64,000 nucleotides of DNA, from positions 62,001 through 126,000 of the forward strand of contig NMRA01000743.1 in NCBI GenBank assembly GCA_002633005.1. Direction: 5' to 3'. A model generated the notes under the pieces. It made no database searches. It was not told where the DNA came from and saw nothing but the letters and a program-made list of their open reading frames with translations. The stretch comes from Phoronis australis (Eukaryota > Animalia > Phoronida). This document shows positions 10,556 to 40,200 of the stretch, one piece after another (position 1 is the stretch's first letter; the number at the start of each line of letters is the position of its first letter). The translations under genes were made by a program, and so were the position numbers.

Positions 10556-11079
10556 AGCAATCGTTAGACCAATTATTAGTTCTGCAGTTGAGATGGAAGA
10601 ATTTCTCTTTAATGGTAATACTTTCAGATGTGGTAGCTAAAAATACAACGGACGGAGGTAATGATCGGTTTAGTTTGGGAGGTGGGCATGCACAAATCAT
10701 CAAAGAAGTAGATGATGATCCGACTATCTATCTGCGTCTATTCCGCTCAGAAGTCTGGCTATGGCTGCAGAAGATTGATACCGGGTAGGCGTGACCCCCT
10801 CCCCCATTGGAGATCCATCAGTGTCCCACTCTCCACCCCAAAGAACAGTTTGTCCAGAGCTCGCCTGCGGACTAGATTGCATGTTTTCCTGTTTTTTCAG
10901 GAGTTTTTGTTTATTAAGGTAAATGAAGAATTAAGCAAGAATGCATCGTTTTCAGCCTATTTCTGTGCAGCTGTTTCCCCTACCCGAACACCTGTAATAT
11001 ATGCCCTTTCTGGAAAACTTCGTGTTCTTTGTGAAGAAAAACATCCTTTGCATTATGTGCACTTTTTAATGTTTGGGAT

Positions 11080-12190
11080 CCTGTGTTATACTACTGCTAA
11101 TCCTGAAAGCCGCAGTCTACTATATTTCGATTGATGGTAAGTGTATTCATCTGAAGTTTACAGCAGGCGACAACTTTTGGACCGATCCGACAACAGCTGT
11201 GACTGGTTTTTATGAAATTTGACCAGGTTTCTATTAAAGAGGCGATAACATCTCGTTTTTTGATTGATTTGGCTAGTGGCCGTTTTTTTAAATTAATTTT
11301 GAGTTTTTGGCTTCTGCCTCTCGGCCAAACCACTCTAAGGACAATTATGATAATTGGCATCATATGCTCCTACTCAGGGAAGATGATGGATTGCAAGGAT
11401 TTTTGGATGCCCTGTCTACTGTGGCACTTATTGGCAGTTTTTTGTGTCTGTGGCTTTACCATCTGTTAGTCCTCTGGTGGATCTTTGTTAAATTTGCTAC
11501 TGAAGTGTATTTTTGTAGGCAGGTAAAACGTATGATGACAGTTTAAGGTTTCTATTAATGGTGGTGTGATGACACCTTCCCATTTTCAGATGTATTTCAC
11601 ATAGTGTATGCCTCCTAGTGGCCATTTTTGTTATTTTTTAGGCTGTTTTTTTTGGCTTCCATCTCTCCATTGGCCTTAAAGTTCATGAAAAGTGGTATTT
11701 TATTCTTACTGGGAAGACCTCGTCTAGCAACAATACCTTTCTATTTTCGGACAGATTAGATATATTCTACCCGGCCTGGTGACTCTTGACAACAGTGCTA
11801 CTGTTGTACTCTCTAATGACAATTTTTTGCATCCACAGCAGCTGCTGTATCAGCACTGAAAGCCTTGTGAAATATGATGACTGAATGTATTTCTATGAAG
11901 GTGGCAACAGGTATTAACAATTTCTTTTGGATATATCCAAATAATGCTGTGCCTCCTACTGGCAATTCTATTTTTTTCACAATGCCTCCGTATCTTGGGA
12001 GCTCCTAGTCAGGATTTCATGAAATTTGGCTAATAGGTTGTTATTAAACAAAGCAACAAGGTCTTTTCATTTTCGGACTGATTCAGTTTCTTCTGTGCTA
12101 CCTAGTGGCCATTTTTTTAGACTAATAACCATTACATAGAAGCATACCATTTGCTATGGGGTGGTTGGCATTTTCGATGCTTTTGTTATT
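11080..12190. repeat. HINE-like repeat with internal ~130-160 bp units (cctagtggcc motif)
   Basis: Recurrent cctagtggc, ttttcagat and aaccactctaagga motifs shared with 14930-17520 and 58070-60165. Confidence 0.7.
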
Positions 12191-13050
12191 TATCGTTTGT
12201 CCACGCCCCAGTTAGCCGATATTCATGTCGCTGAATGAACTCTGGGTTATAAATCAAATGCTCGGTTGACAACAATGTCCAGGATGGATTGTCACTCGCA
12301 AATTCCTTGTCAGGGCAGACGTTTGTTAGTGCGTTTGACTGCTGAGTTCTTCTAAATGGTGTGCTGTTTCTTCTGGCTCTTGCCAGTTGACCTTCGACCT
12401 CTACTGTACTTGCACAGTCACAGCCAATTTTTCTGAGAGTTCCCTGCTGATCACGACTGCAGTACTTAATGTCAGTTTAAGCCTATGTTGCGAGAGGGAC
12501 AATTTGGTTGTCCTGTATATAAGTATACCAAACTTGTTTACTTGAGATCTTAATTTGCAAACTAAAATTTGCATGATCGTAAGTCTCAAAATAACACTAT
12601 GATTGCACCGAGACATTTCACAAGCTTTGTATGGTTTGCAATTCCCAAGATAGATTAAATGAACAAAAGTCTCATAATGTTTTGTAATTAGTGTATTTTC
12701 CATATTTTTTGACAAGTCGGATTTACATTTGATAGAAAATAAGCGTTTTTAAAAAAGTTTATAATTACGTATTCCATTTGAAAAAGTCCCAGATGCCTGA
12801 CAAGGGGATCGTCAGAGACTTTACGTGAATTGCAGGGCTGTGACTATGTTGACTGGTAGCTAGTTGCAGAATGTGATTTAACTGATTAGGGACCTGAGTG
12901 GCAATTATAGCATGAATTATGTATTGGCAAGTGGAACTAATTCTAGTCAGCTATATTTTTATTTTCAGGTCTGTATTTTAAATAATCTATTTCAGCGTGT
13001 TTTTCTTTTCTTCATTCTGATCTCATCACGACTTAATGGTCTTTCTTTAG

Positions 13051-13201
13051 TTGGTCCATGGCCGGAAGTAGTGTTCATGAATAATGCTGATCGAGCGAAT
13101 GTCAAAACTTTGGGAAAATCCAACACTGCTGGTAACAGTGTCCAGGAGGGGTACACTCGCAAGTTCTTCCCTGAAGCCTGGCTATGGGCAGACATCGATG
13201 G
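13051..13201 (+). CDS. Alternative bait/variable exon A ([51 protein letters not shown])
   Basis: Acceptor ctttctttag|TT, donor GG|gtaatg; 151 nt, phase 1 to 2; FPEAWLW motif. Confidence 0.9.
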
Positions 13202-16200
13202 GTAATGACTTGAGTTCTTCTCATTGGCTTGCCTGCTGTGCCTGCTTTGGTGGTGGGCTTCTAGTCAGCTGTGAGAGATTACTTACCCTAACAAGGTCAC
13301 CACAAACATTTCATAAAGAGTTCTATTCTGCCAGCTGGTCTTGACTCTTGACAGGGAAAACATAATATCAGTAGTGCTACAATTATACCAAGACCTTTCA
13401 CAAACTGATTACAAGTTTCAATTCATTTAATTCTCCAATTACACAAACAAAAGTCACATAATGTTTTGTAAATAGTTGGTGTTTTGTTTCAGTGACGGAT
13501 TTAGAGGGGGGCCATGGCCCCCCTAAAATTCTCCCAGATTCCATTTGTCAGTTCAGGAGTGTGAATGTCTTGCGGGCAAAATCCTGGCTAATACTCTGCC
13601 CTGCCCCCCCCCCCCAACTCAAAATCTTGGATCCGTCCCTGTGTATGCTCATCAGGAAGTTACGCCAGTTCATTACAGACAATCTTGAGAAGTGACTGAG
13701 TGCTAGCAGCGGGAGAAGTCTTTATGAGGGAAGACCTTCGATGGCGATTGTGGAAGACAGTGTTTGCAGACAAACTGTCTTAGTGATACCGATGATAGAG
13801 ATTGTGGAAGGTGTTAGGAGGCCTCTGATATTTGCTTGTGGTATAACGTTTTTGAACTATAAAGTAATTTTATTGTATTTCATAATTTTCAGACCTTTGA
13901 AAACTGGTTTATGCCTGGAATACACCCAGCTAGTAGTCAACGGTTTATGGTCTTCTATTAAACGTAATTGAAGGCATTGTATGTTGTTTTTCCCTTAGTA
14001 TTTCGTCCCGATTGGCGCATTCCTGTCATGGAAGCTGTAAATATAGACAAGATGGCCGCATCAAAAACTTCTGGTGGACAAACAGAATCGCCAGCACAAT
14101 ATGTTCGGCGTCTTTTTCCTGAGTCCTGGATATTTACCGGAAGTGTCTCAGGGTAAAGCCTTTCACGGATCATACCACTGAAATTTGCGACTTCACTCTT
14201 GCTCGATTCTGTTCTCACTAACACATGGCTTCATTTTCTGTCGATTATAGCTTGCTTATAGTGCTTTTATTTTAAAAGGCAGTTGTTGATCAGTTCCTGA
14301 TAATGCTTGATTGCCTTTACTCAACCTTTAATGACACCATCTACACTTGGAGTAACTCTAGAACAAGTTCATCCAGCAGTGAATGTTACTAAATTTAGTT
14401 GTTCTGTGGATGCTGGTGCAACTTATGACTCACCTGCGACTACTTAACTCACCTCATCTCATCGAGGTAAGATAACTAAATGTTGTAGGGTAACTTGCCA
14501 TGGTGGATTGACACAGTGTGGTCACAAACTTGCTGACAAGAAGAAAATTGTTACCTACGAGGCACTTAAACTGTTCAAGTGTTTTCAAATTTTCGCTGAA
14601 AACTGTTTCTTTTTACTGATCTGAAGATAACGTTTAATCTTAATTTATATGCCATCTTCATCTTGAAATCATCTTTTAGAAACTAGCAACTGTAGAAAAC
14701 TGCATGTTTTTAAAAGGAGGCTTCTGAGTGAATCACATCACTCCCATTCTCATGGTCACATGACCATTGGTTTTTGTTTTGGTAAAAATGTTTTTGAAAC
14801 TACATTACGGAAAAGCCATTTGACCATCATACATCTAACTTTTCGCATCAAAGCTTTGATAAAAAATTTCAGAAAGCCTGTCTGGGATTTTCTATTACTT
14901 GAGCTCGACGCAATTTTGACAGAGATGACGGCAATATATACCCATGTGTAAAAAGTGGGTGCATATTGCCGTCATCTTTGTTTAGGTGTCCGGCGTCCGC
15001 AGCTGTATCTCCTAATTAAAACCACTCATAGGATCTTGATGAGGTGTGTCATATGTGTTCCTATGAAGTTAAGGATAGCTGACAGTGAATTTCGGTCCTG
15101 TCCAAATACTGATGTGTCCCCTAGTTTCAATTTTAGTTTGTTACGTTTACCTCTGCATCTTTGGAGGTCCTCAATGGATTTTCATAAAATTTGTTAGATA
15201 GGCATCCATAAATGAGATGATGCTATCCTTCCATTTTCAAATGGATTCGAGGTATTTTGCACCATCTAGTGGCAGGGCTTCATCCAGGATTTCGAAAATA
15301 GGGTGTCCAAAATGGGGTTCCCAATATTACAGGGCGTCCATGATTCCAGTGGCGCGTAATACCCCCACCCCCCACCACATTTCACCAGTAAATCCCCCCA
15401 CGCACACAGTGAAGTTTTTCAAAAAAATGCGAAGACCAAGGCTTTTTCATCTAAGTTTACAAAAATAGCTCCCCTGTTGTGAGCTTTTTTACTAAAACAG
15501 TGCGTGGACTAAAACTTTTACATCTAAATTTACGAAAACAACCAAGTAGCTTACCAAACAAATATTACAGATATTGGTTGAACCACGAGTGCACTATGTT
15601 TTTGGTGATCTCAAGTCAAATTGCTGTTCTAAAGCTTATCATATCATCTTAACTAGCTTTTATACTCTGTTTGTACAATGAGTCATCAGAGCTGCAGTTA
15701 CCAACACAAGAAAAATGCACAGATGATGTGTGGTGAAATTGTGGCAACAGGTGTCGCTGCTCCTCCATGTCATTAAAACGCACATTGAAAAGCGTGAAAC
15801 GGGTGCAAACTCGAAAACATTAAATAGGCATTTTATTGTAGCACAATATAGTATCAAACTAATGACATTTATTTCGCATGTGGTGTTTTTAAAAAGAAGA
15901 CGAAAAACATGAAACTACAGCTCTGTAACACCAGTTTACAGTCTACAAATGTCTGTGCGGTTATATTAAAGAGATGTGAAAAGGGGAATGAAAAGTAGAC
16001 TACTCTGGTAGACACTGAACAGGTGCTAATGATTGACATGTCTTCTCAGTAGTTGGAGTAATGCAACATAGGTTTTGTGTTTGTTTCTGACTTGAAGTGC
16101 CAACATTTCTTTCTTAAACTTTCATGAGCTTCCAGTCTTGCAATGTGGGTGTCCTAACGGGAGAAATTCTGATTGACTTCTGGCGTGCGTTCAGTAGACG

Positions 16201-19200
16201 CTAGGACCTACGCTAGGACCTAACTAAAACCTAGTCAAAGTCACGTGTTCTTATTTAAAATGCACGGTAATATCTCACGTAATCTCGTGAAGTCTTGCGT
16301 TTTAGCGAGGTCCTAGCATTACTGAACGGGAGGCTGGTGTCCATATGATACATTGGGCGCCAGGGCATCCAGATTAGTATTAGGGGCGTCCAAATGGACG
16401 CCCAGGATGTACGCTGGATGAAGACCTGTCTGGTGGCCATTTTTATTGTTTTTAAGTCTGTTTTTGGCATCCGCCCCTATAATGAACCAAACCACTCTAA
16501 GGAGGTGGGAAAATTGGCATATTTTATGTCCTTACTGTAAAGAGGGCAGCTGGCGATGATTTTCTGACCACTTCGACTTCTGTGGTGCATCCTAATGGCA
16601 GTTTTGTTTGTTTTTTGCACCCATGGCTGTATCTCCTAAATACTCTACTGGATCTTTATTAAATTTAGCAAGTTTACTTATATGAAGTTGACAACGGATG
16701 ATGACGACTTTTGGACTGATCGGACTATTGGTGTGATCTGAGTGGCAATTTTAGTTTTTACTTTTACCTCTGTCTGTATCTTCAAAGGCCCTCAACAGAT
16801 TTTCATAAAATTTGGCAGGTAGGTATCCGTTAGTGCAATGACGCTATCCTTCCATTTTCAGATGGATTTGAGGTATTTTGCGCCACCTAGTGACAATTTA
16901 ATGTTTTTGAGTCTGTTTTTTGCCGTACGCCCATCTATGAACCAAACCACTATAAAAGAATGATTTGTGAAAATTGGCATATATGTTCTCAGTGTGAAGA
17001 GGATGACTGATGATGATTTTCCGACGACTTTGACTACTGTGGTGCCTCCTAGTGACAGTTTTGTTTTTACCCCTATAGCTGTATCTCCAAAACTCTGCAG
17101 GATCTTTATTAGATTTAGCATGTGTATGAAGATGACTTTCAGATGGATCCAACGAACGCTGTGCCCCCTAGTGGCAATTTGATTTTTTTCTGTTTTCCTC
17201 TGTTTCTCAGAAGTACTGAAGGCTTTTTATGAAATATGGTAAATAGCTTTCTATTGTTAAATAAACGATTATATGTTCCTGGTTTTGTATAGATTTGATG
17301 TATGTTGCGCCATCTAGTGGCCATATTTACTGTTTTCTAGTCTGTTTTTATCGTCCACCCCTCTATCAACCAAACACTCAGGATGATTTTGAAAAATTTA
17401 GCGGGCTGATGAGGATTTTTGCGCAACATGGACTTCTGTCGAGCCACTTAGTGGCAGTGTTTTTTGTGTCTATGGCTATATTTCCCAAACCCTCTGCAGT
17501 TTTTTTTTGAATTTATGGTTCAAATAATCCCCCTAGATACAAATATCTGCGTTGCTCTTATTTAAAATTTAAAGCATATTCAATGTTTTGACTTTTCTCT
17601 AATGTGCAAAACAACTAAATCAATGAAGACTCCTTATGAAACAGATGAGAAACAGTTTTGACATTGAAAGATTATACTGTTAGAAAATTCATACAATGAG
17701 CTAATGTTTAATATCTAGATTTAATTTTCTCTAGTTGTCTTGGTCAACATCTTCACTCAGAGTACTATCTGCAGTCTTTGCAAGATTCTGTCTCGGACAG
17801 TGTTAAACCAGGTTCAGCTCTGTTCAAATCAACTCTCAGACAGTACACAATGCGTGGCATTAGCATGCCTCCTATGATAGGTTGCATGCGACAGTCCCAC
17901 AAAGGGACTCAATTATGTTCCCTAAGTTTTCAGTGTATTTGAAGACCTTTTGCAAATACTGGTTGTCATTTTTCCAATTTATCTTCATTACTACTTCAGG
18001 TTTTAGCTTTGAAACATGCTGAGACAAACTACATACATGTTGAATTCTGAGTATTATTGAAAATTAGTAGAGGAGTATGTCCTTAAATTAGAGGCTTTGC
18101 ATGAAAATGCTCCTATTTATTTCATGGCGATAAGGAATCGCTTTTCATATATATTTTTGAGGAGTATGTCCTTAAATTAGAGGCGTTGCATAAAAATGCT
18201 ATTCATTTCATGGCGATAAGGAATCACTTTTCATATATATTTTTGATGTAGTAGTCACAGGCCTAACCATAGAAGCTTATAAGAGCAAAATCTGGGGTAT
18301 GACTTATGTTTCCATAATTACCAGAATTTGTAATCTACTCTGAACACAATTGATCCTGTTGTCTCGGACTAATCACCCATACATTCATTGCGCCACCAAC
18401 AAAATAATTATCAGTTAAAGTCAGGTGTTTGTAAAATGCAATTACAGACTTGTCACCACAACAAAATTACTTATTGTGGATGGACTTTTGTTTAAAGAGT
18501 TCTAGGCTTGTAACTTAAGTCTAGCAATATCTTTCAACACTAAGGGGTTGTAACACTGTTAACCAGCAAGCTCCTGTGCAGGTCTCATCAATCTAATTTG
18601 GGCTGTTGAAGGTGTTTGAACCCAAGGTTGCACTAATGTGTATTTGAAACAGATGCCAGTTGTGTGAGCATATTTTAAATTCAAAATTTAAAAATTTCAT
18701 ATGAATTGTGAATATAATCAAAAGCTTAGCACAAGAAAAAAGGAATCGTGGTATATTTTTGGTCTATTCAATGATTCATGTTTTACTAGTCATTAAAGAC
18801 TGAATGTAAATATGTGTATGTGATGAAGACTTGTAAGACAAGCTCTAATTTTGCTGTCATCCCCGTCCACCTGCGATTGATCCCCTGTTGTATCTTTGAT
18901 GTCCAACCATGCTGGCTTTCATTTGCACCATGAAGGTACCGTGTATCAAGCTCTTGCCAACCTGACTGATTAGAGAATCAAATCCTGCTTTTATCAATAT
19001 TTTTGTCCACATTGCTCGATCCTCAATGCTTAAAACTGACTGGATTCCTTTGGGGTATAATTCAAATATTAAGTTCTTTTTGTGCAGTTATGTCTAAAGT
19101 CAACCTGTTTTGGCCTTAAAGAACCACAGTGTTGTCGTTGGAAACTATTGTTTTGGTTTATGTTTTGGGTGGAACCCTTTTGTTTATTTAATATGATGAG

Positions 19201-22200
19201 TTAGCGTTCTGGAGCCCGTTCCAAGAGACCAGCTTAAGTTTGATTTGTTTGAATCTCCAAACTTGAAACTTCCACATCTGGTAAGTTACGTCAAATTTAA
19301 GACAGCATTTAAGTCAAAAACTTAAATCAAACTTAAGATTATTTTCTTGGAATGGCCTTTAGAATACAAATTTAAGTTTTATTTGAAAACTGACTTAAGT
19401 TTAAGATACAGTTGTCCTAGTTAACGGGAATGGGCCCCTGAATTAAACATGGTTCAACAGACCTGATTTGAGTTCATTGACTGGTTCAACAGGAAGACTA
19501 GCCACTAACTTTCATTTATTCCTGTTGAAAAGTTTGCAATTTTGCCTTCACCTATTTAACACTGCGTGGGTCTTCAACAGTGCTGGCTGGGTTTGTTGAA
19601 CAAAGGAGTAAAACGCATGTTTTTTTGTTCAAAGTTAAAAATTTCTATTTTTAAAGACAAATTTCATTTTAATAGACAGTAATGTCAAAAACGGCTTGAG
19701 GTGTATGTAAAAATTTCAGGTTTACAAGCACGCAGTGTGTATTGCTGGTTTCTGCCTCTGTTTGCATCCCCTAACAAAAGGAGTCAGTCTGTAATGAAAT
19801 TTTACTTGCCATGTCTATTCAAATCCCGACCTCTAAGAAGCATTCAAAGTTAGCTTTTAGGATGTACATTATAGTGCCTCATTAAGAAATGCCTTATTGT
19901 GTTCAATTTCTTGTTTGTGGATTTTCACAGATCGTGCACTTTTTAAATTTCCTACTATGCTCATGCCTCAACCTTACATACGCCAGGCGTTCCCTGTATC
20001 ATGGGTCTGGACAACTAGCAGTGGTTATACATGGTAACAAATGGACAAAATGTTTTTTGTAACGTTTCTGTTGTCAATATTCTGCCAGTTTTAACATATG
20101 ATTGCTTTCAATACTGTGACTGGCTTGGAGTAATCGCATGCTGCAGTGAGGTTGATAACTCTTCAATTGGAACAAAACTTAACGCTTTAAAGGGGTGTTA
20201 ATGACGGACCTAGTACAGGTGAAAAGTTAAATTTGTGAACTGAAGTGCAACTTTCATTTACCCCTTTCCCTGTCAATACAATAGAGAGCCATCTGGCTAG
20301 GCTGCCAACAGGTACATGCATTTAGGCCTTTTCATACTAATGTCAACGCCTCGATGTTTTGGGGATTTGTGGTCAGTATGAATGGTAAACTTTGGTCCTG
20401 GACGAAGTTAACTGTGGCAGTTAACTTTTCAGTAAACGGGTGGATTTAACAGTGGAGCGTCAACGCTGCGGTGCCATATGAACGGTCAACTTCGGCCCCA
20501 TCGAAGTTATCGTCAGAGGCCACTGTCATCGTCAACAATTAAAGGGCAGTGTCACCGCTTATAATTGCTTAAATTTTGCTCAAATAATCACCAATTAAAT
20601 TAGAAATATTTTTTGTCAATTTTTGTGTAAATGTTCCCAATTTAATTGTCATATGAAAAATCTTAGCGTTACTCAATTTAATTGTCATATGAAAAAATCT
20701 TAGCGTGCACGCAATGCATCAGCACTACCTTGCGATTACTTTGATGACAACTGTAAGCGTGACCTACTCTTTTCTTCCATGTCTGATAACTACCGAAGCT
20801 GGTATGAACAGTTCAGTTAACTTTGCAGTTTACCTCGATGCTCCACAGACTGGAGTTAAGTCAGTATGAAAAGGCCTATAGTTTTATGACATCATGAAGC
20901 GTCCTTAATTATTACCTAACAGCCCAAGCAGCAGGACTGAAATCAATGGGCTTATTGTGTTCGTGTTAGCAAACTCCAGCTGTGGGATGATCATCACCCA
21001 ACAGTCAATTTTTACCTGGACTGGGTTCCTCATGTTTCATACTTTTCAAAGCCTTACAACGTTGTTGAAAGTACCCAAAATGAGCAGATGATTTAGAAAA
21101 ACTGACTTTGCTGTTTATTTTTGTTGAGAAATTACTGAAAAATTGTAAATTGAAGTTTTTAAGATATTTTGCAAAGCTACAAACAGGTGTTCAGAAATTA
21201 TGCATATTTTCTTAAAACGTGACTCAGTGTTGCAAAAGATCTCCTAGACTCTGTCCTTGATTTCACTGTGAGCTCTTGTAGCTGGTAGCCTCAGCTATTA
21301 TGGCCTCTCAGCATTTCATAAATCTTTAATCAGAATTTAATCTTTATTCTTAATGTTTGTTCAATGTTTTGTTAATTACATCCTTCACTCATGGTAGTTT
21401 GGTTATGAGTATTAAAGCCAACTTTATATTTGCTTTGTCTAGAACATTGTATTAATTTCAGTGCTGTTGTTTCATTATCTAAAATCTCTAGCTCTGTTTC
21501 AAAAAATCATTCACGTGAACTTGCAGCAGCTACTTACACCCCGCTTCATCCTCGATAGGAACAACTTCCTCATAAACCTGATTTGCGCACTTTCATAGTG
21601 CCATTTAGAGGAGTTAGTACACTGTATGACAGTCAACATGTGGTGCGGCTGGCTTGACCACGAGCCGGCTCGCCAAGAACTGTCACTCAAAAAGTTGATA
21701 GTTGGGAAAAGTACCACGAGATTGAAAGGTTTTGAGACTTAGCAGATATCGAAAGTCAGCAGTGAATGTGCCATTAACACTGGTTTTGTGTAAACATCAC
21801 CTGAGTGGACTGAACAAAGGAAATTACAATTATAATAATTCATTACTACATGTATATTTTAAGAGTCTAATGGAAATTTGTTTTTGATAAGAATTGTCTC
21901 CCTAAAGCATTTGTGCAGTTGTGTAAATCAGATTACAAATCGACAGAAATACTCGAATAACCTTTTCTTGAATGCAGAATCTTTTTGTGTTTTGTATTGC
22001 AATTGCAACTTTTTTGGTTCGTTCGCATGACCATTATTACAAGAAACTTGTTGGCACTTAACTATTTACAACGACTGCATTAAAGACAAGTCACATGCAG
22101 TATACATGATCTAGCCCAGTTGCTGGTCGTTTGGTGACAACGATTCTTTGATGCATTTAGGAACCAGCAGAAATGTAGTTAAGGTACCACTTGTCGGCAT

Positions 22201-25200
22201 TACAAACATGGTTAAACTGTGTACTATTCACATCGTGCTATGTTTCAGTGCCCCCTTTTGGCGGTGGGGTTAGACCTGAAATGATGGAAGATTTTGATGA
22301 CTTAAAAGTTTTCGATTTACCTCCACCATTGAACAAACAATCCACACAGAGTTCTACTAAATCGCAGTTTGTTCGAAAGTTCTTCCCCGAGGCATGGCTC
22401 TGGGCTTCTATAATCAACATTAATGGGTATGCCGCGTTATCCACTAAATACACTATTCAGGTGGTTGGTTTTCTTTTCCCTCACTCCAAATGCATTTCTT
22501 CATGTGTGTGTGTGTGCTTTACATTGTTCTGTTTCACTAACAGACCTGAAAGCCTCATTAATTCAATGGAGCCTACTTTATAATTATTCATACTCATATA
22601 ATTTACAAAACAAAAGTCAATCACTTTGGACTCAATATGGGTGTAACATCATTGTGTTTACCCATCGTCAGCTGATGGATTTGTCAATGATGCCTCTGAC
22701 CTTAGCCTTTTATTCTGAGTCAAGTCGCTTTGAAAAGCCACTAATGACAACCGCGGTAAACCCACTTTGTGACTGTCTTTAAAGTTTGCACACCAAAATT
22801 CAAGCTGAAATTGAATTTTCTTAGTTTTGAAGATTGGGACATAGGTGATTTTTGAATTGGTTGTCAAAGATCAACATGTTTTCCTTTTGCACTTGTGGCC
22901 AAGGTTTTTTAGGGATTTTTGTTGTTGCGGTATCTTTCTCAAGATCGCAAATGGTCTACAGTGTTTGAACTGGCACACAAACATTTTAACTGAAGGGAAA
23001 CTGTTGTACAAAATGTACAGAAAGGGCATTCGTTCTAGCAGTCTCCTTAAAAACCCAATGGCATTTACGGAAATTGAGAAATATTACCATCTGGCTGCAT
23101 TGAAAACTCATGGAAATTTCTTAGGGCAGAGATTCATGTAAAAATCATGGAGAATGCCCCAAGAAATAAAAAAAATACCTGTGATACTGGATTTGTTTTT
23201 TACTTATCGGTTGGCAAATCCTGACATTTCAAACTTTATTTACCCTTGCATTACATGGTGAGCGAAGGTCTCAAAATGAATCCAGTCAAGTCCAGAACCA
23301 ACTTATGCTTCTTTGGTCTTATCAGTGTTTAGTTCCTTACTACACCACCAAATTTCATGCGTGGCGTTCCGATCATTTTACTAATCTGAGACGTTATTGA
23401 GTAGAACTATGATGTAGTCAATCTTACATGGTGAAGTGAATTTAGGGTTTGTTGGGGCATTATTGACTAGTGAGTCTGTGTACTTATTGCCATATATCTA
23501 CAAAACAATATATTCACTCCATAAAAGTATATATTTTCTGAAAGAAGAAAACCTGAAAAATTTGATCCTGACTTTTTTCTTTTTTGGTTACGTGACTTTG
23601 TTTTTTTGTAAAATTTAGCAAAATAGTATGGTATACCGATACAAAAACCACAGTATCAGTAACATGATCAAGTCTTGTTTAATTAAAATGTCTTACATCT
23701 AAATCTTAAAAATGATGTTACAGTTTCCTAAGTTATTTCATTTCATGCAACTTTTTATTTTTTTTCACGGAAATCATAAAACCCTTGTTGATAGCTCCTC
23801 ATTCAAAAGTGGAACAATTTAAAAGCAATTCACGTGACGCTGCTTTGGAGACCAGTACATGAAACATGATATCTGAAAGCTTCGTATGAATCCCCCATCA
23901 GATCAGCCGTGAACGTTCCTAACTTAGCCTAGTTTGGACTTTTTTCTAGGTTCCTGCGAAGTCTCTAACCTTTCTGTAGGTGATATCTATCATTCAATCA
24001 AAACAGATACAACAAACTAAGCTAAAGTTTACCAACTGAAGGTATATTTATGTGAAAGAAATTAAAGGGTACAAATGGGGTGTGGCAGGATATACCTAGC
24101 GTATTTCTAATGGCAGTGAAATTTCTTTAATGGTAATATGTTTTCATCATGCCTTACTGTTGATTAATATCAGCGAGACTCTCGGTTAGAGTTAAGATCT
24201 ATCATAATGTTAAATCCTAGGTTAGATTAACTGGGCGCTCTTAGTACTTAAGTTTTCACACCTTTTCCTCTGCTGTGTGTACCTCATTTAACTGCCTCCA
24301 TTTCAGATGAGCAATGTCTTACTGGCTGAATTTTTAGTTTTAATTGCTTCTTGAAAATGCTTCTGCTAGCCTGTAATGCCACGCATATTCATCCAGGACA
24401 GCCTTGGTCAGGTTACGGTAATTCTCTACTTATTTCGCACATCCTTGTAAGTTTGCACAACAAAAATTATTTGGAAGCTATTGGATTGTTCATGACTAAT
24501 TTCGCACATGACTACTTGGTGGTAATTTCTAGCCAACTGCATCTTGGAAAATATCAACTGTAAGACTTATCGTTAATACATGGAATTCGTGTTTTGGTCT
24601 CTGTGGATGTTACATGTCATGTCTGTTCACACCAAGGGATTAAGGAATCTGGAGGATTGACAGATTGCGTGGTATTGCAACTTGTTCCTTGATACTCAAT
24701 CCTCATTTCAGCTTACTACAGTGTACATGTGATTTTCACTAACCAATGTTTTCTTGCGTCTTGTTTATCATTGTCTTATTTTCTACTGGTTTACTACCAA
24801 CACGTATTCATTTAATATTTATTTGTTTAACCCTTGTTTTTTGTTTCACTCTTTTTCATCCAGTGTTTTATTGAGTTGCCATTGTTACAAGGAGGCAAGA
24901 TTGTAATGTTTATTAATATGTGTATTTTTAATTTACAGCATCGCTTTTTTAAAATTTACTGATCTGCTACTTGGAAGTTTTTACTGTGGTTTATCGAATT
25001 AGTTTTGCTGTCGTTGTTGTGGCTTGAAATATAGAATGAACTAAGTTTGTGAAAGTAAACATTTGTTAGAGCCTTGTGAATGGTGCATGCAAAGTGCCTG
25101 TGTTTGATTTTTGCCCTCAAAACTCATTTTTAATTTGATTTGTACAGTGTAATGCGCTGACTTAAGCCCATGCAGCTATTCTTGAAGCCGTGCCTGTTTA

Positions 25201-28200
25201 CAGGCACTTTTCCTTGTAATTATGTGAACCAAAAGGATATACCGTAAACGTTCGGTTTAACGCCCTGGGCGGTTAAATTGGCAAATTAAAAAATTCGGAG
25301 GTGGGCTGTTAACTAGACATGGGCGCTTAAGCGTGAAGTTTCAAGATATTGGGGGTGGGTGGTTAACCGAATATGGGTGCTAATTACGATAGACAACCGT
25401 CCTGGCGGTTAATCTCATGATCTGAGTCCCACACGACACACGTACTCGGAACATGTAGCACATTTCAAAGAACTTTATCGTCACGTCACCGTATGTTGAT
25501 AAAAATGTCATAGCAGCGGACGATCCCAACAAATGTTCTGTTGCCCTCAGATTAGTCATTCACAATTTAATTTACAAATTGGTGAGTTATTAGCCCCCGT
25601 GCTATCCTGCGATTTTACCAGATATGAGCCAGTTGTCAATCAAAAGTTACCGCAAAGGCATCACTCAAAAACAAGAATTTGTTTAAGATTTCATTTACAA
25701 AAAATACTAACACTATTACTGGGGATAAGTCTAGTGAGGGCATACAGTAGAGTTTGAGGAAAACAATTAATAGTTCGTACACGTATCTGCATCTGTAAAA
25801 AAATAATTCGTAGATGAAGGGGTAACCGACACCCGTGGTTTGCACAGGTATAGGACTTAAATTAGTGAAGTGCTCCAACCTGCAAGTCACTTCCTTACCG
25901 AGTCGGTGTTGTTGCAACCGGGACTCCGCGCTTGGCATAACGAATGGCAGGTCTCAGCGGTGACCTGAAATTATGATCGTCTTGTATCTAGTCACACCTC
26001 GAAATTCCAATGTCCGTGAGCTGATTTTTGGCGGAAAGTAGAAACCTGGCAAACATAAAGCAACTTTTGCGAATCTGGCCTTTATTTGGTTGTTGCCAAA
26101 TTAAGCTGAACAGTGACTTATAGAGAACAAACAGAACCCTCATTGACATGTAAACGTGTCGTCGCGCAAACATCGGATGTAATTCACAACCTATCTTCTA
26201 TGGCGCGTTTCATTGGCGGTTACTTTTGCAATTTGTTGGATACGCCGAGGAAAATTTCAAACCACGGCATAAATATGAGGTATTAACGTCACAAAACAGC
26301 GATGTTCATTATTTCATTCTTAAACGACCAACTTACAAAACTTTGTGGTGGAAAAAACATTTATTTTACACGCAGTATGTCCAGATTATCCTATTATAAT
26401 ATTACCTACAACATCGCAGAACGGCACTGGTCGGTCCTGCTGTTTGCGCACAATGCTGGCAGACAATTGTGACTTCGAAATGCCGTCAGACAAGTAATAT
26501 AACGGTTTCTTTCAATATGCGTCTCGTTTTTTGTGGCAAAAGACAGGGGCGGGACTCAGCACATGCATATGTATGAGTCACCTGTCACTCACAGGTTAAA
26601 CATGCACTCCAGTGTGTGGGAACTTACGCGCGTGCACCACTCCAAAGTCGCACAAGATCAAAAGACAACAGCGACAGTCCTAAGTAAAGGAGTATACCGG
26701 CGTGATTCTGTACTTTTAAGCCGTCATTATAAAAGACCCAGTGTTTTACGATATTCCTTCGTTCAAGTGTCAACCAACTGCGATGTCGAGAATGTTCCAA
26801 TGTTTGTTTCCCGGCTTGATGTTTCCTTAGCCCGACGTTCCATGCCTATTGCTAGCTGCGTGCATGTCATAACCACTGCCGCCAATTTTCAGTCAGTCCA
26901 CGTCATAGATATTTCAGATTCGAATGGTAAGAATTTTGTTCAGGCTGAAACTGGCCAATGTAGAAACAAAAATATTCGAAGACGGTAGGTGGATACGATA
27001 ATTCACAGTCATGCCTGGGTGGGGGTTGTCGCAAGAAATCATAAGAACTGTCAGCTACATTGGCGACATCTGGTAACGCCAGTTTGACTGAGATGCAATA
27101 AGCGAAAAAGAAAATTTGACTTGCAGTTTTTTATCATTTCAAGATGATACACAAACATCCAGTATCGTATTGCCAATCTTTGAATTCAGAAATCGAGAGA
27201 CAGCAAAATGGTGAGGCACATTGTCCGTTTGATCGCCACACAAACTCAATAAACTGGCAATAACATTCATCAAAATAGGGAGAATTTGACATCTTTCCTT
27301 GAGTCATGGGAAATCGTCAAAATATGAGAGCTTCCAACCCAAAACGAATTGGAAGAATTGTCAAAATCACTGTCACATTTCTCTGGCCTGATTTTTTTGA
27401 ATATATGTTTTATCTAGTGTACTGCAGATGGAAACTCAGCCCGACAAGTGGAGGTATCGAAGCCGGCGTGGTTCGTAAACTTAATTGCGGACATCGGAAG
27501 AAAAAAACGTTCAAGTATTATATATTGAAGTAAATCCATGATCCGGGACGTTACATTTCGTTACTTGTATTATAATTCACATTGTCAAAACCGGAGGCTG
27601 TTGTTACACTCATTGTAATCGTGGATCTAAAAGTCGGGGAATCGTGCGTTTCCTTAGCACTGGGCGCTAAATCTTCAGTCTTTAAAAGTGGGGATGGGCG
27701 CTTAACCGAGAGGTGGGTGCTTAACTGGAAATCTTCATTAATTGCAGAGGGGCGCTTAACTGAGCAGTGGGTGCTTAAATCGGAAATCCACCTAAAGTTG
27801 GAGATAGGCGGTTAAGTGAACATGGGCGTTGAATCCGAAAGTTTATGGCAGTCTAAGAGCAAACTGAGTGAAATCTGAAATATTCCTTGTTATAGATTAT
27901 ATGATTTCACATAAAAGGGCTATATACCCGATTTTTGTCCATCAAAGAAACAAACTTACGACTTACCACTATGAAATTGTTTCGTCTTATTAAGAAGAGG
28001 AATGATTTCTGGGCAGGGGAAGAAATGTGGCTGTGACTTAAAGCTAAGTTATTGAGCCTATAATCTCATGCTATAAGGAACTCTCAGTTCTTCCATTAAG
28101 CTCAGGTATCACCTCTTAATCTGAGTATGGTAAAATCTCACCAGTTATGGAAGAAAATAATTGTCAAATTTGCCCTTTTCTCATTCCAAGATCTTCTTAT

Positions 28201-31200
28201 CTTGTAAGTGCCGACATGAAAAGAATCCTTTGTTGGCACCCTGGCAAGTTTGAGCAACTCTACCTTCAATAACGTTAAAATGCACCACTATCTTCAGAAA
28301 AGCCACTCAGCTTCAGCTGTTGTTGGGATGAACTTGGATAATTAGAGGCGAAATTGCCTATCATATACATGGTTGTAAACACTTGGGGCAACAGTAGTAT
28401 ATTTTAAATTCAAGTTTTCAGTTTGATTTTTTTAGTAGTTTTTGAATAGTTATTGAAAAGTACTGGTGGTAAACCACTGAATTTTGAAAATCAGACGAGA
28501 AATATGACTTATGACCTTGCAGACGTTTTCACAATGTTTTGTGATCATCGTAGATGTCATACAAGACCAGGTGAGGTGATGGTAAAACATTAATGTGGTG
28601 CTTTTTATTTTATATGAAAAAATGAGAAAATATAATTTCAGCTGTCAGGCATATTGTGTCCTGGTGAAATTTTACTTTTACAGAATTAAGTGCCCTAAAT
28701 CAAAATCTTGGGTTTTTTTACAAACGACAGCTTTGTAGCCACTTCAAAGATAATTATAAAACATGCTAAGATTAGGCAAAAAATTGTGAAAAATTTCTTA
28801 AGAACGACCAGGGGCGATTTTCGTAAATGAAAAACACTCACAGAACACTTGCAATGACGAAATATAAATGGCAAATCCTATCCCATAATTCAACATTGCA
28901 GCTTCGCTGACCAAGTGAATCTCTCCAATGGCCACCATTTTTCTTCCCCTCATTTGATTTTTGTGATCTCTTACTTTTTCACACGTGTGTTGCATCACGC
29001 GAACCCATTTCTGTACGTCAAAAGCAATACCTAGTGCATACCCTTATAGGCAAGCATATGCCTATTATACAAAACAATTGAAAACAACACATTTTTTCAA
29101 GCATAGGTGCATGTGGCTGAGGACGCTCATATTTTGTTTGTATCGGGTTATTGATGTAATTTGCCTGTGTTTGCCTTGCTGTTGTGCTATTATGTTCGCA
29201 TGCTATGAGCACAGCTTTAAGCACTTAATGCCTGTGAATCGGTTGTTGGAATTGCTTTTTATTAATAGTCTTTTTAATAAAATAATGCAATTGCTTTAAT
29301 TGTTAATACTTATCAAAATGGTGCTTTTAAAGGAGGATATTACGTGTTTTGAAGATGTTCTTGGTCATTTTGGCATATTGTAGTTAGAGCTGTGGGAGAT
29401 ATCTTGAATCTTTTTAGACAATTTTAAAAAGTGTTTAGAAAACTACAATTTAGATTCAGAAGTGCGGTCCTGAGCTAGTCGTGTAATGGAAACATTGTGT
29501 ATCTGGTGGGTCGAATCATGTTTACCAGCGTCTGGCATCATGCAACTCGTGTCAAATAGCAATTATGTACCCAGGCTGTGAGTGGACAGGCGTATTGTCA
29601 ATTGAGCCCTGTAATTGGAACAGCTGGCATTTCTGGAACTCGCTCACTTAGTCACACTTTGGGTTTCTATGAATTTTGTATAGAAATGCACCAAAAGGTT
29701 CAAATTGAATAAAATTGTCAAGTTGAGCAGACACCTTCAAAATTGTGCAGTATCCTCTTTAATATGTCAGTTGAAGTTATTATAATTGGCCTATTTTATA
29801 TGGTTATTGTTTTCTGTAATTCTGGGAATTTTTTAAAGTACTGTACGCTTGTAATCTTTTCAGGATATGGTAGGTTGTCAGTAGTTCGTACTTTCCAAAA
29901 GTCACTGTAGTTGTACTTGCAAAGAAGTGGGAGCATTTGAATAAAAAACATTAAGTTTTTGTTATTTGTTTGAGAAAATGTCTTTGTACTTAATGGCCCC
30001 TAAATTTAGAACTTATAGCATCTGTTATTCAAATTTTACAAAACGCAAAAGACACGGGATCTAGCATGGCAAAGATTCTAGTACCACATGGATTACTGCA
30101 TTCATTTTGAGTTATTGCCCACGACAGTACTTATTTACTCAAAAATCTTGGGGTTTAATAACACTTTTGAAAGTTTGTGAATTGACATGTATCAAACTTT
30201 TGTCGGTTGAGGTTAACTGTGTTTCTTTCTGTCGCTTCAACTGCCAGAGTTATGCAAAAGACTTGTCCTGCAGCATATAGATAATGTATTGTTTGTTAGT
30301 CACAAGTAAGTGAATTGCTTTTGATTTGAGAACTGACTGAATGTATACAGACAAACGAAAATTTGAAAAATTTTACCAAACGTGGGCGTTAATTTGGATG
30401 TGTCCAGTAATTGTGAGTACCTGGAGTTATGATTTTGCTTTAAAATATTTCATTTCTGTGTCATAATCTTTTATTTATTTTTTGGAATTATATAATGTCA
30501 ACAATATAATACAAAGGATAGAAATTAACACCACTAGTGATTAGGAAACGAGCATTCCCACTCGCCAGCTTGACTTGACTTTCTCCAAAATACTGATTTT
30601 AGTTTAGCTGCTTCTGTGTTATCATTTGTTGGTATGTTTTGAAGGTCAACTGGAGAGTACTGCTTTCCTGCTAAGGTTCCAGATACCATCACTTCGTGGA
30701 TTACGACCGCCTTCGCCATGAGTGAAAGCGACGGACTCGGTGTCATGGCCAAGCCAACAAAGGTGATCTGTGCAGTAAAATAATACCAATTTCGGGCAAA
30801 TTATTGCCAAAAGCTCTTGTTTTTGTTTTCCGAATCGAGTGATTTTAGTGTTTTATCTTCTAAATGTATGATGGTGCCTGTAGTAGACAACTTATTATTC
30901 TGAACTACTCAGTTTGCCACGATTATCTCGCACGACAAAGATTTGTCATGTAGTGTTCACTTATATGTGCAATTCAGTTGCATTGTGTAATTAACCTTTG
31001 CAAGATCTGTGACGGTATTCTGTTTCATGACTCGAATTGGGTGTTGAACTTTTATTATAATTTTTAGCATAATGGTAGTTGATGAATTTCATCAAAATTT
31101 AATTGCATGGCTTTGTTGAAGTTGTGGGGAAAGCCCCTAAAAAAACGAAATGAAAAATATCTGAAAATGTTGCATTGAAATTTCAACTAGAGGAAGTTTT

Positions 31201-34200: not shown

Positions 34201-37200
34201 ATCACACAAACACACACACACACACATTTCACCAAATGTACTTTTCTCATCTGCAGTTTCTTTTTAAAGAGGAAAAACCAGACAATCTTTGGAGAAATAT
34301 GTCTCCTAATCCATTTTTACAATAAATATATTTTTCGAATTTGAAATAAGTTTCTAATTCTTTTTTGAAAAGTGTTATAGATGAAGGCTCTACTTTCAAA
34401 ATTCTACAGTATTTATGCTTTTTGGCCAAAAGAATGATAAGATTCAAAAGTTCCTCCGCTTTTCCAGTTTTATCAAATATAACAGTCTGAAATTAATCTA
34501 CCGATATATCGACGTTCTTTTGCAAAATAATGAAAAATTACTGCCATTATATGATCATTCAGAAAGTGTGATTTGGTGTACTTAAGAGTTGTCAGTCATG
34601 AGTGTAGACATTTTACTAACTGATTCAATTGTTGACAGCACAATATGAGCTTTAGAAAATGTCAATAATGCAGCTAAGGCTTAATATCTGTTGAATGACT
34701 CTGCAGTGTTTGTCATTTTATCTGTTTTAAACTTTTGTGTCATTAACAAATCTCCTGGGTATTTTTGACGCACAGACCTTCCTCACAGGTACTTCGATAT
34801 ACTTCTAGACATATGTCAAACATAAATACACTGTAGTGTCAGTAATTTTAATAGTCAGCTCATTTCATTTCGATGAAAATTTACTGTCTTCTCTGTTCAA
34901 GCCTGAAGGTGAGGAGAGATGTAGTACGCAATCCTTCCTGGCTGATCTCACGACCCCACAACAGAACTCGGAGACACAGACGTTTGACACTGACTTTCCC
35001 ATGGAGGCGGTATCTGGATCTCAGAGTATCATGATCAAGACTACTGGTAGGTCTATTTCATATATGCACATGTGTAATGGTACATATGGGTGTGTTATAT
35101 CTTTTGTGCAAAGGTGAAATACACAAGAGCTACTTAAGGTTTCACAATACAGTAGGGAAATAGGAGATAAATAATCTCAACATTATTTGTGCTTTGATTT
35201 CATTTAAAATTGATGTAAGGTAGGATGTTAACTTGTTAGAAATACTCCGTATTGGTTTCGGATCTTTATGAAATTGGGCAAATATGTGCTCCTATTAAGC
35301 AAGCAGCACAGGTGTTAATTTTTTGTTGGATCTGACTTATGTGATGCCCCTAGTGACAAACTGGAAATGCGTCTGTCTTTAACTATCTACCAAGTTATTC
35401 ATCGATCTTTATGCATTCCAAATGAGGAGAGTACAACTGTGTTGAGTTTCAAATGGATCCAACAACGCTGGAAATACTTGAAGAATGAGCACTGATGACA
35501 GAATTGTCAATCGAAATGGTTGGCTGAGTTATTAAATCAATGACTGTATTTAAACTTAATGTTTTGGCAATCATACCACACACATTACTGGTAAATTTCA
35601 GGCGGAGATCTGTCACACCTGTTGAGCCGTGGTTCTTTACATTCACGCTGTCCTGATGCCATAGACTACTGTTAGGCTGTGCTCAGCTTAGTGGTCACAG
35701 TAATTCGTTTCTACCGGAATGAATAGTTTCTTTATGCACAGTTTTATGGTGGGGTCCAGTCACCAGAAAAAACACACTCAAGTACAGAGCTAGTTAACTA
35801 TTTGGGTGTTGCCTTTATGAACAAATCTTGACCCTTCTCATTGTAAAGTGCGACGCTTTTGAGTTTTTCCGCTAGGATTGCCAGCAATACGAATTTGTAG
35901 AGGCCTTACAATATGGAGAGTGGAAAGATTATCTGAGCAAATTTGTGCTGCCCTTTATGATATAGTTCAAACATAATAGCCATTTTCTGATATAACAACG
36001 GCAAAGCATTGAACACCATCTACAATTCATGGGTGACACAGGACCATGTGAAATTTCACATTTAAACATTTTGTTCTTATAAATTCTTCTAGTATTCCGT
36101 CAAATTACGACTATTGTAGGAATGGGTTTTCAGTCTCAGTGACTCGGTCAAAGAACCCAGTCTATAATTGCGAAATATCCAATGAAGGGAACCACACCCC
36201 GTCCTATAAATATCTCTGCATTTTGGGCTTGGAGGGGGTAACTAGTGTGTATAGTGGCTGAGAACATGACGGCATTCTCCTGTTCAGTGACTTTACCAGA
36301 TGGGAGGATTGTGAGCTTGTAATAACATCTAGCTCCCTTGTTAACTGCTAAGCACAGTATTTTGTCTGGTATGACAACAGGCAGGCATAGTATAGAGGCT
36401 TATTACAGACCACATGTGAACACAGTCAAACCCAGAGCGTTTGGAAAGAATAGATTGTCGTAACTTCGGTTGCAGTTGGGCGATTTTGGCGATTCAAAAA
36501 CTAAACATGATCAGCATTTGATGAGGAATTCAGAAATGCTATTGGTTTATGTTCAAATATGTTATAACTTAACTTTTATTTTTAACAGCACAGCCTAGTC
36601 AGGCAGATATGATCTTATTGAAGATTAGAGCAATTATAGAACAAAAGAGAGCTGGCCCTTCAAACTTAAATGCCAGAATGGAGTTAATCAGTCGTGTGAG
36701 ATATACTGGCTGCAGGGGTCATCTTCGCAACTTGGTGTTGGGCTACAGAATCGAACAAGTTGGGAGCAATGGGAAGGCGCCGTAATGATTTTGCGGGGAT
36801 GGTTATAAATCATGGGTGTCATTCGCACACAATTAAACCTTTTGAAATTCATATGCAAGGTCAGTGAAAGCAGTACTTTGTGAACCCTGTTCTTAGTCAT
36901 ACAACTGTCCCATTTGGACTGTGTAACTAAAAGTTTAACAGAAGTTTTATGGTCCTGGCTGAGAAGATAATTATTTTATTACTCCCATGCATTTGGAATA
37001 GCGGAGCCTGGAATGTGCCCGTCTTGCACACCACAGTTTGACATCCCTGCTATGCTCCCAAAGTGCCAAAAAGCTGTATGTCAAATGTTTGCTATGAGCC
37101 ACACTCAGTTCTTTGTGGTGTGTACAGGTGACCTGATGGGCCCCACAATACAGGGACTGGACCAACTGCTGACCATCCCTGTGGGCTGTGGAGAGCAGAA

Positions 37201-40200
37201 CATGCTGACCATGGTTCCCAACATCTTTGTGCTGGACTACCTTAATGCCATCAACAACCTCGACTCTAGCATCCGTGCACGCGGTCTGACCAATATGGAG
37301 ACAGGTGAGCCAGTTCATACTTTGTGAGGACCACCACTATCGCATGTATTGACGGCAGTGTCTAATCCGTGACTCATGCTGAAGGTCCTGCCTTTATGAT
37401 TGCTTAAGTGTGTTGTGTTCCCCATTCACATTGCACTGCATTTTTGGCAATATTTTGATGACTCCAATAAGCCATAGTGTGCACCAGTCAAGTCACTCCA
37501 TCATTGCTCAGGCAGGTTACACAATAGAGATTTGGACATATTAACAAAGAAACAGCACTTGCAGTGAACTTCACTACTGCATGAGGGACTTTGTACATGT
37601 GAAAATATACAATTCCAAAACCCAATTGAATTTGTGAACTGAGGCGCAAGTTTCAATTTCCCAACTCCCTGCCAACTGGCTGAGCTGTTGAGAGTCAAAA
37701 GACCCTTTCCCATAAAGTTAACTTCGCTACTGCTGAAGTTTCGTTGTTAACTGTGGTTAACCGCGAAGTTAAGTTTTAGTGTTCCCATCAGCTCCGGAGT
37801 TATAGTTCAGCGAAGTTATACCAAGGTGGCGCTAATATTATCTTTGGTCATGATATTGCCTTGCTGTTTTTGTCAGTGCTTGCCATCAAAAATAGCAAGG
37901 ACCTCTCCCTTAATGGAAACTAGAGTGTCAACTTCACAAGGCAAGCAACAGTTACCATGTTGGGACGATGACGATGTACTTGAAATATATAAAGTTGACT
38001 CTTGAGCAGGCTAATAGCTGATCCAAACAAAGGTGGTATTGAGTGGAGGGAACTTCTTTTGCGTACACTTTGCATTCAGTCATTTTTTGAATGTAAAGAA
38101 TGCAGAAAGGTGCATGGATGAATTGAAACAGAATGGTTATACTGTCAAAATTATAATTATTAGAAGAATTTATTAACAAATTGTAACCAGTCACTGCCTG
38201 CTGTTGGCTAACACGAGCACTGTCCCCTGCTGATAACTCCGATGTCATCGAAGTTAAGTGTTCCCATTGTAGCGAAGTGTCAACACTTGCTTTTAAATTC
38301 ACCTCTTTACTTCGGAGTTAATTCATGCTACTAACTTCGATTCAAGACCATTGACAGAAGCTTCAGTGTTGGAGCCAGTGGGAAAATCTTTTCAGGCACA
38401 TAATTTTATGAAATGTTGAGGCGTCATAAAGGATTAGGTGACCAAGCAGACCAAGCAGCTGGACTGAATAATGGGATATTGTGTTCACATTAGCGAACCA
38501 TTTAATACCATGGTACTCATGGCAACATTTTATAACCAACATTATATGAATTTCTCATATTAGACTCAATGACTTCTACCTTAACCAACATTCAGACGAG
38601 GCCCAAATATCGTGGCCACTATTACGAGCAACGCAAAGCTAGAGGCGTCTGGACTTAATTTCGGTTGCCGATATTCATTGAAAATGTATTTCTATGCATG
38701 AACACAGTTAATCGAGCATTGTGATCTGGCTCATAAAATGTAATAAACAGCCCTATCAAAGTAAAACTGCATTTTGAAATAATACACATTTTCAAGAATT
38801 GATGATTCCACAAACATGCCTAACACAAAAAAGTAGCCTAAATCGGTGAACGAATCGTAAAAACTTGTTCACTTATAACAGTTACGTCAAAATTAGATTG
38901 ACTTCTGCTGCTTGACAGATACGGAAAGCAGTCTGTGCTCAATTATCTTCACCTAAATGGCATTTCACTCTTGAAATATATTTATGTGAGCATATGGACC
39001 CGCATTACTCCTTTTCCCCTCATCTTGGTCTATTCCATTATTCCCTCGTGCAGGACTACACGACGTTTTTCCAGCCTTCGCATTGGTCTGTTGTTATCAC
39101 GTGCCTCGAGTTCGGTCAGCTCTTGGCTCTTATAGGCTGATGATTGTCACGTGTCTTTAGGGGCGTTTTTCTTTGTTATTGTAACCTCGCTTTCAGTTCA
39201 CTTTGTTCTGGCCATTTGTTGTACATCAAAAACTCATTCACTTTTCCCACCCTCTTCCTCCCAGTTTTCGTCATTCTCTCGTACTTCCACGTGGCCGGCG
39301 CTTTTTTTTTTTCATCTTACCAGAGATTACCTATTATACGTTATTTACCTGTTTTCATTTTATTGTAATTGTACTAGTCATAATAAATGACCTTATATCG
39401 CCTACATCAGTCTCCTTTTCATCTCTGGTAACGAGCTTGAGACGCACGTATCATTTATTTATTATTCGGGACATATGTCGATCATAAATAGACTTGGGCT
39501 ATAAGGAACATAAAGTATGGAAATGTGCTGTCTGGACTGGCTGCATGAATAATGAGTTGATCCAGGCCTGTATTCCATGTAAATGACAATGTCATGTCAT
39601 GAAAGTTATAACTTTGCAACATTGGTTGAATAAATGTAAGTAGTTGTGACCTATTGTTTTGTAGTAAATGATCCAATGGTGTTTATTTTCTTGTCGAATT
39701 TGGATATCTAAATCTGTAACCCCCGACCTTCCTGTTTCAGGTTATCAGCGCGAATTGCTGTACAGGCATGAGGACGGGTCGTTTAGTGCCTTTGGTACCA
39801 GTGATCCTAGCGGAAGTACCTGGTTAGTTGCTGTCATAGCTAGTCTTGGCTGCTAAAATCTTATGTTTTGCTTTAAAGAAAGTTGAGGAAGTGTGGCCTA
39901 GTGGGATAGGTGTTCGCTTCTTTTATTCAAGCTTGTGGGTTCAAGTCCCACTGGGGCACACTGCTAGACCAGTGAGTCAGGCCTCTAGCACCTCAGTTTG
40001 GTTTTATCTGTATATTAAAAAAAGCATAAAAATGGTTCCAGGTGATTAGTGCAATGGGGTTACCTGTGCGGCCTGCGCACATCTGGTACGTTTACCAGAC
40101 CATTTGCAATTTTTTATAAAGTCTGTAATAACGTATTAGAAGCAAGGTCTCCTCAAAATCAAGTCATGATTCGTAATTTTGTGTAACAACTCCCAAGCTT

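Follow-up and report, generated by a model that had tools for sequence, protein, structure and literature searches.

Cassettes of alternative bait exons are already known from flies, scallops and snails. In BgTEP2 of the snail Biomphalaria glabrata, 12 exons spread over 30 kb are mutually exclusive, and variants were likewise reported for a glycosylphosphatidylinositol (GPI)-type snail CD109, BgCD109 (four to eight), and for BgA2M (three; PMC7016707). Five isoforms of exon 5 are described for Drosophila Tep2 (PMC7016707, PMC5489563), and CfTEP of the scallop Chlamys farreri forms seven isoforms from six mutually exclusive exons and shrimp A2M six variants (both as cited in PMC7016707). In human CD109, bait cleavage leads to a conformational change and to thioester capture of the protease (PMC12927315); in engineered A2M, the bait sequence alone determines selectivity (PMC8267569). 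Secreted iTEPs bear a C-terminal six-cysteine signature (PMC5989330), and three further papers have a minor bearing on the TEP comparison (PMC9363628, PMC12939704 and PMC2685406). Here, we describe a 64,000-nucleotide (nt) stretch of DNA (contig NMRA01000743.1, positions 62,001 to 126,000; hereafter, the window) in which tandem predicted bait exons, termed E1–E4, with a fifth candidate, E0, precede the downstream body of a CD109-like gene.

The four exons E1–E4 had been proposed from the letters of the window (the original prediction), and their positions, phases and shared motif were borne out. Each of them is preceded by AG and followed by GT, has a length of the form 3n+1, and is open from phase 1 to phase 2. 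Their 3′ ends all read R-x-x-F-P-x-x-W-x-(W/F), and these were the sole matches to the strict pattern in all six frames of the window. Leave-one-out profiles of E1–E4 gave scores of 45–53, compared with a maximum of 35.25 when the 30.6-kb region was resampled 300 times with an order-2 Markov model. The N-terminal halves had been called unrelated, and indeed no kinship was detectable among the 5′ parts; the best of 10 pairs was matched by 4 of 200 shuffles. The arrangement found, tandem exons of one phase with a variable 5′ part and a conserved 3′ motif, is that of an exon cassette. Agreeing with the claim that the motif occurs once per A2M/TEP chain, of 120 homologues 93 contained it once and none contained it twice. 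Because they lie directly before this motif, the variable parts of E1–E4 are read as the predicted bait segment.

RNA reads mapped to positions 10720–30719, a range that includes the last 65 nt of E0, were used to examine splicing. Runs X2, X3 and X4 are raw-read runs of one study, chosen by species label, of which about a fifth of each was read; X1 consists of contigs from a second study, and its RNA nature is a guess. The junction 13201>30645, with GT..AG borders, was covered by 29, 27 and 10 reads from 20, 22 and 8 starts in X2, X3 and X4, respectively, and was also present in an X1 contig of depth 246, that is, in all four runs. All these reads had one mate direction, as expected for plus-strand RNA in a stranded library. 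In the three raw-read runs, the depth of E1 was 41, 32 and 13, corresponding to 57, 54 and 26% of the estimate for the shared downstream exon (71, 60 and 50). After subtraction of background, the depth was at least 21, 8 and 23 for E2, about 6, 4 and 5 for E4, and 4, −1 and 1 for E3. The depth in the E2 bin was one-stranded. These binned depths suggest that E2 and E4 are used. In X1, the E2 bin had zero depth, which hints at sample-dependent use, although contigs lose rare forms. The share of E1 varied among the raw-read runs. The depth in the E0 bin came mostly from reads on a repeat at 11342–11351, and E0 gave no clear RNA signal. Repeats of a dispersed family that share a short conserved core occur in many copies (11567–17489 and 54400–59500) and attract numerous RNA reads originating elsewhere.

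Every cassette exon is 3n+1 long, and the joining of two of them therefore shifts the frame. On the assumption of a phase-1 upstream donor, an early stop was encountered in all 10 pairs, all 10 triples and all five quadruples, in each case by residue 92, and skipping every cassette exon led to a stop at residue 24. Transcripts with double inclusion or skipping would be nonsense transcripts and would be cleared, leaving one exon per mRNA.

We consider it highly probable that the window holds one CD109/iTEP-type gene in which E1 is spliced to 30645 and three or four same-phase neighbours likely replace E1 singly. The isoforms would be identical except for the predicted protease bait segment. Duplication of exons in tandem would have produced the array; a structural role would have preserved the 3′ motif, and the 5′ part could have drifted freely. 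A phase-1 donor would lie 5′ of the window. On the model of human CD109 and engineered A2M, a protease would cut the chosen bait, a conformational change would follow, and the thioester would bind the protease; the choice of exon would then decide to which proteases the probably GPI-anchored trap responds. The protease specificity, the GPI anchoring and the immune role are predictions.

The original prediction spoke of at least four exons and listed exactly four; the former wording stood, and the list overlooked the candidate E0. In E0, R-S replaces the F-P of the motif. Seven of its 12 core residues are identical to those of E1, and its profile score was equalled in one of 300 resamplings, or in none of 300 when a matching donor was demanded. 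Profiles made from outside homologues did not single out E0 (E value 3.4 in one search, no hit up to 10 in another) and were weak on E3 (0.012 and 1.9). E0 had no usable Atlas match, and E1 had no relative among metagenome contigs. We regard E0 as a probable cassette exon, which may instead be a pseudo-exon or relic. A further candidate at 7507 scored 25, inside the null range, and was dropped; a minus-strand tblastn match at 3503–3622 was devoid of the thioester motif and was judged to be due to chance.

No upstream constitutive exon had been visible to the original prediction, and homologue searches of the window found none either: N-terminal exons were sought with 87, 83 and 18 homologues and a linker exon with 32 segments. 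Such searches are insensitive to divergent exons, three exons of the gene body being matched by just two to four of the 87 homologues. These negative results make it probable that the upstream donor lies 5′ of the window, more than 10.6 kb before E0, where further cassette exons may also be located. The signal peptide and the N-terminal MG domains would likewise be encoded 5′ of the window.

Several observations weigh against the one-gene cassette. The upstream donor was not seen. The original prediction had named four junctions for checking, and 13201>30645 alone, one of five possible junctions into 30645, was among the 15 of 268 joints listed, nearly all of which are repeat-derived; of the four or more isoforms claimed, that with E1 is shown by its junction and those with E2 and E4 are suggested by depth, and E3 lies around background. 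Neither E3 nor E0 was clearly over background. All depths are bin arithmetic (667-nt bins, with 75 nt of the shared exon at the mapped edge and the intron background taken from the neighbouring bin), and the depth of the shared exon that E1 leaves unexplained could stem from exons 5′ of the window. The F-P of the motif is missing from E0, and the GPI anchor is predicted from hydropathy. No docking or selector signal was detected behind the exons: the pairing of 28-nt windows of 22700–30600 with the five flanks did not exceed that seen in controls (in this downstream version, 171–431 of 500 control sets were as good, and 17 of 30 control flanks were covered), and the intron flanks of the cassette exons shared no motif above controls. 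A docking site upstream of the exons would fall beyond the window. With no selector or flank signal, only frame incompatibility is on offer to explain how one exon is picked.

Part of the array might have fallen silent, with E1, E2 and perhaps E4 in use and E3 and E0 left as relics of duplication. Such a decaying cassette is possible though somewhat unlikely, and it is compatible with the one-gene cassette as far as E1, E2 and E4 are concerned. The near-background depth of E3 and E0 in the three runs agrees with it, as do the absent F-P of E0 and the outside profiles, weak on E3 and blank on E0. However, both exons keep AG/GT borders, phase and an open frame despite 5′ parts diverged beyond recognition. 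The three raw-read runs are one study, CfTEP isoforms are reported to be tissue- and challenge-specific (as cited in PMC7016707), and the loss of the F-P proline is frequent in BgTEP2 exons and also seen in the homologues P0039 and P0065. It is very improbable that E1 alone is functional and that the remaining exons are pieces left by truncated copies of the gene or by duplication in the assembly. The only junction among the listed joints is that of E1, and the assembly duplicates sequence at both of its N positions, but no N (assembly gap) lies inside the cassette and the exons are much too divergent for alleles. No flanking exon accompanies any cassette exon, in keeping with the original claim of one CD109-like gene rather than separate truncated copies; moreover, the depth of the shared exon exceeds that of E1, and the E2 bin has one-strand depth.

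Splicing could also proceed as described and serve a role that is not antimicrobial: proteases of the animal itself would control, in a tissue-specific way, how a surface CD109 is shed or signals. Human CD109 is released through cleavage by endogenous proteases, and it affects TGF-beta and STAT3 signalling (PMC12927315), and the hydrophobic tail and the weakly supported tree position of the present gene (see below) fit the CD109 type. Isoforms in invertebrates (scallop and shrimp) are, however, tied to infection (as cited in PMC7016707), and the thioester and the histidine are intact here; we consider this alternative role unlikely.

The one-gene cassette resembles the exon-22 cassette of BgTEP2, in which tandem exons over approximately 30 kb have a variable 5′ part, a conserved 3′ end and a phase-2 donor (PMC7016707). 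By the coordinates in that paper, 11 of the 12 alternative exons have a 3n+1 length; the remaining one measures 198 by coordinates and 196 in the table. In both genes, exons of 118 and 114 nt follow the slot, and seven of the 14 downstream exon lengths are identical in order (118, 114, 177, 82, 157, 81 and 181). Unlike the present locus with its four or five exons, BgTEP2 has 12, which read F-x-E without the proline, and in the available parts of PMC7016707 a GPI signal is named for BgCD109 alone. Exons of 118 and 114 nt also follow the slot in BgTEP1, 3 and 4 (lengths read by hand); the slot is family-wide, and therefore a common slot does not prove an inherited cassette.

A cysteine cluster, a hydrophobic tail and, as predicted for the present gene, multiple bait isoforms are shared with the gastropod CD109s, as in BgCD109 (PMC7016707) and the Haliotis rufescens isoforms X1–X6. 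The six H. rufescens isoforms (P0142 and P0271–P0275; XP_048253379-86) differ only in a segment of about 40 residues upstream of the bait-end motif. Thus, the swap precedes a constant motif in H. rufescens CD109 (approximately 38% identity), whereas the motif-bearing exon itself would be swapped here, as is the motif-bearing segment in the Mya arenaria isoforms X1/X2. Judged from sequence, the pairing of a GPI-like tail with a swapped motif-bearing exon would be the sole anatomical difference found among the cases checked. CfTEP and Drosophila Tep2 also have alternative exons in the hypervariable region, a likeness by description and not by exon phase or sequence, and the available parts of PMC7016707 and PMC5489563 mention a GPI anchor for neither. 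Human CD109 (PDB 8S3O and 9FX2) was the top solved-structure match of the thioester exon (E value 1e-11). It is a GPI-anchored thioester protease trap, the anchor being predicted here; release of its MG8 requires a furin cut, and the available parts of PMC12927315 mention no bait-exon cassette, which was not searched for further.

Among full-length proteins, the nearest relatives are iTEP/CD109 proteins of molluscs with 35–39% identity, the best reaching approximately 39% over the joined model. Nine of 10 close relatives looked up carry names: one is a fish CD109, and the others are CD109-like or hypothetical proteins of molluscs. No database protein of the gene itself was found, the best matches having 59–63% identity on one conserved exon and up to 62% on another; two of three word-based protein searches were matchless, one of them with an overly strict threshold. 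In a quick tree, the gene was placed beside tail-bearing abalone and limpet CD109-like proteins with a Shimodaira–Hasegawa-like approximate likelihood ratio test (SH-aLRT) value of 94 (the tool's mark is 95) and a long end branch, and no starred set holds its row; the grouping with gastropod tail-bearing CD109 is weak. Among 48 long relatives, four contain the bait-end motif more than once, of which two look like doubled genes and two like stitched alternative exons. P0167 (Bulinus truncatus) and P0153 (Batillaria attramentaria) have three and two stacked N-terminal bait-end motifs, respectively, and probably represent cassettes mis-joined by gene prediction.

The present gene appears to be an unannotated case of a recurrent one-gene diversification of an innate-immune protease trap, of a kind prone to mis-annotation (P0153, P0167). 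Beyond arthropods and molluscs, no such cassette was found in the literature, except for an entry on splice isoforms of fish A2M (PMC6650032); subscription journals and bioRxiv supplements, largely outside the search, may contain more cases. It is a doubtful proposition, drawing on the low identity of the best database proteins, that the host lies outside molluscs and arthropods and that the cassette sits on a membrane-anchored CD109 of a further phylum, where proteases would be trapped at the cell surface through at least five selectable triggers. If the host is from another phylum, the locus bears on whether cassettes of this type had a single ancestral origin or several independent ones; the swapped segment differs among CD109/TEP genes, which leans to repeated origin. 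If the upstream alternative segment of the gastropod CD109s is also kept, baits would be combinatorial from two cassettes. With five short baits on a common scaffold, the locus would lend itself to relating exon choice to protease specificity, a relation proposed for invertebrates in the literature.

The features of the locus are listed in Table 1. Downstream of the cassette, 14 exons (30645 to 60875) with AG/GT borders continue the open frame, giving 818, 816, 817, 800 and 825 residues with E0, E1, E2, E3 and E4, respectively. Pfam matches to the A2M, TED and receptor-binding domains (PF00207, PF07678 and PF07677) lie in order on 10 of the 14 exons, counted at E values up to 0.1, with three of the 10 under the curated cut-off. 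No C345C Pfam match was found in the downstream exons, and the reading frame terminates behind the receptor-binding domain and the tail. A histidine in exon 41713–41869, at +115 from the thioester motif, aligns with that of P0111 (C3-like), P0039 and P0065. The C-terminal 110 residues contain four clustered cysteines, with one further upstream, followed by the hydrophobic tail. The most hydrophobic 19-mer is the very last one (2.9), and the final 29 residues include one charged residue. The tail thus resembles a GPI signal, and the product is predicted to be a GPI-anchored surface protein.

Table 1 Positions of the cassette exons and the downstream exons in the window
Feature	Position	Strand	Remarks
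E0, fifth degenerate candidate bait exon	10628..10784	+	157 nt; phase 1 to 2; R-S replaces F-P of the motif
E1, bait exon spliced to 30645	13051..13201	+	151 nt; junction reads
E2, bait exon, probably second in usage	13999..14152	+	154 nt; one-strand depth in bin
E3, shortest bait exon, 33 codons	19931..20033	+	103 nt; depth around intron background
E4, longest bait exon, 58 codons	22249..22426	+	178 nt; depth estimate
Shared downstream exon, 118 nt	30645..30762	+	Pfam A2M
Three constitutive exons	31280-31393, 33100-33342, 34902-35046	+	
Thioester exon	37128..37304	+	GCGEQ intact; start of TED domain
TED exons	39741-39822, 41713-41869, 42919-42999, 43807-43987, 48869-49068	+	
Three further exons	50812-50988, 52635-52801, 54226-54385	+	54226-54385: Pfam A2M_recep
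Last coding exon	60576..60875	+	End of receptor-binding domain, four-cysteine cluster, hydrophobic tail, stop

The downstream body had been said to appear only once, and it was single apart from two exons doubled beside an assembly N. A sequence of about 2.9 kb is repeated on either side of the N at 55160 (52200–58500) with 91–94% identity and yields second copies of the two exons at 55599–55765 and 56531–56690, with splice sites intact. The likely cause is a scaffold gap at which two haplotypes were joined, a true duplication of the exon pair being a possible alternative. Across the N at 45199 (44780–45620), 417 bp are repeated with 99.3% identity, representing an assembly overlap.

Two further repeats were noted: a direct duplication 6.3 kb apart with 85% identity (1071–1980 and 7427–8297) and two inverted copies of roughly 0.9 kb (5908–6853 and 25930–26757). 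Both are probably transposon remnants. The conserved TED exon also matched proteins P0002–P0120, which are mostly CD109-like proteins of about 1400 residues on prokaryotic contigs, several of them from Chloroflexota/Dehalococcoidia; the thioester motif and the histidine were present in both of the two that were checked.

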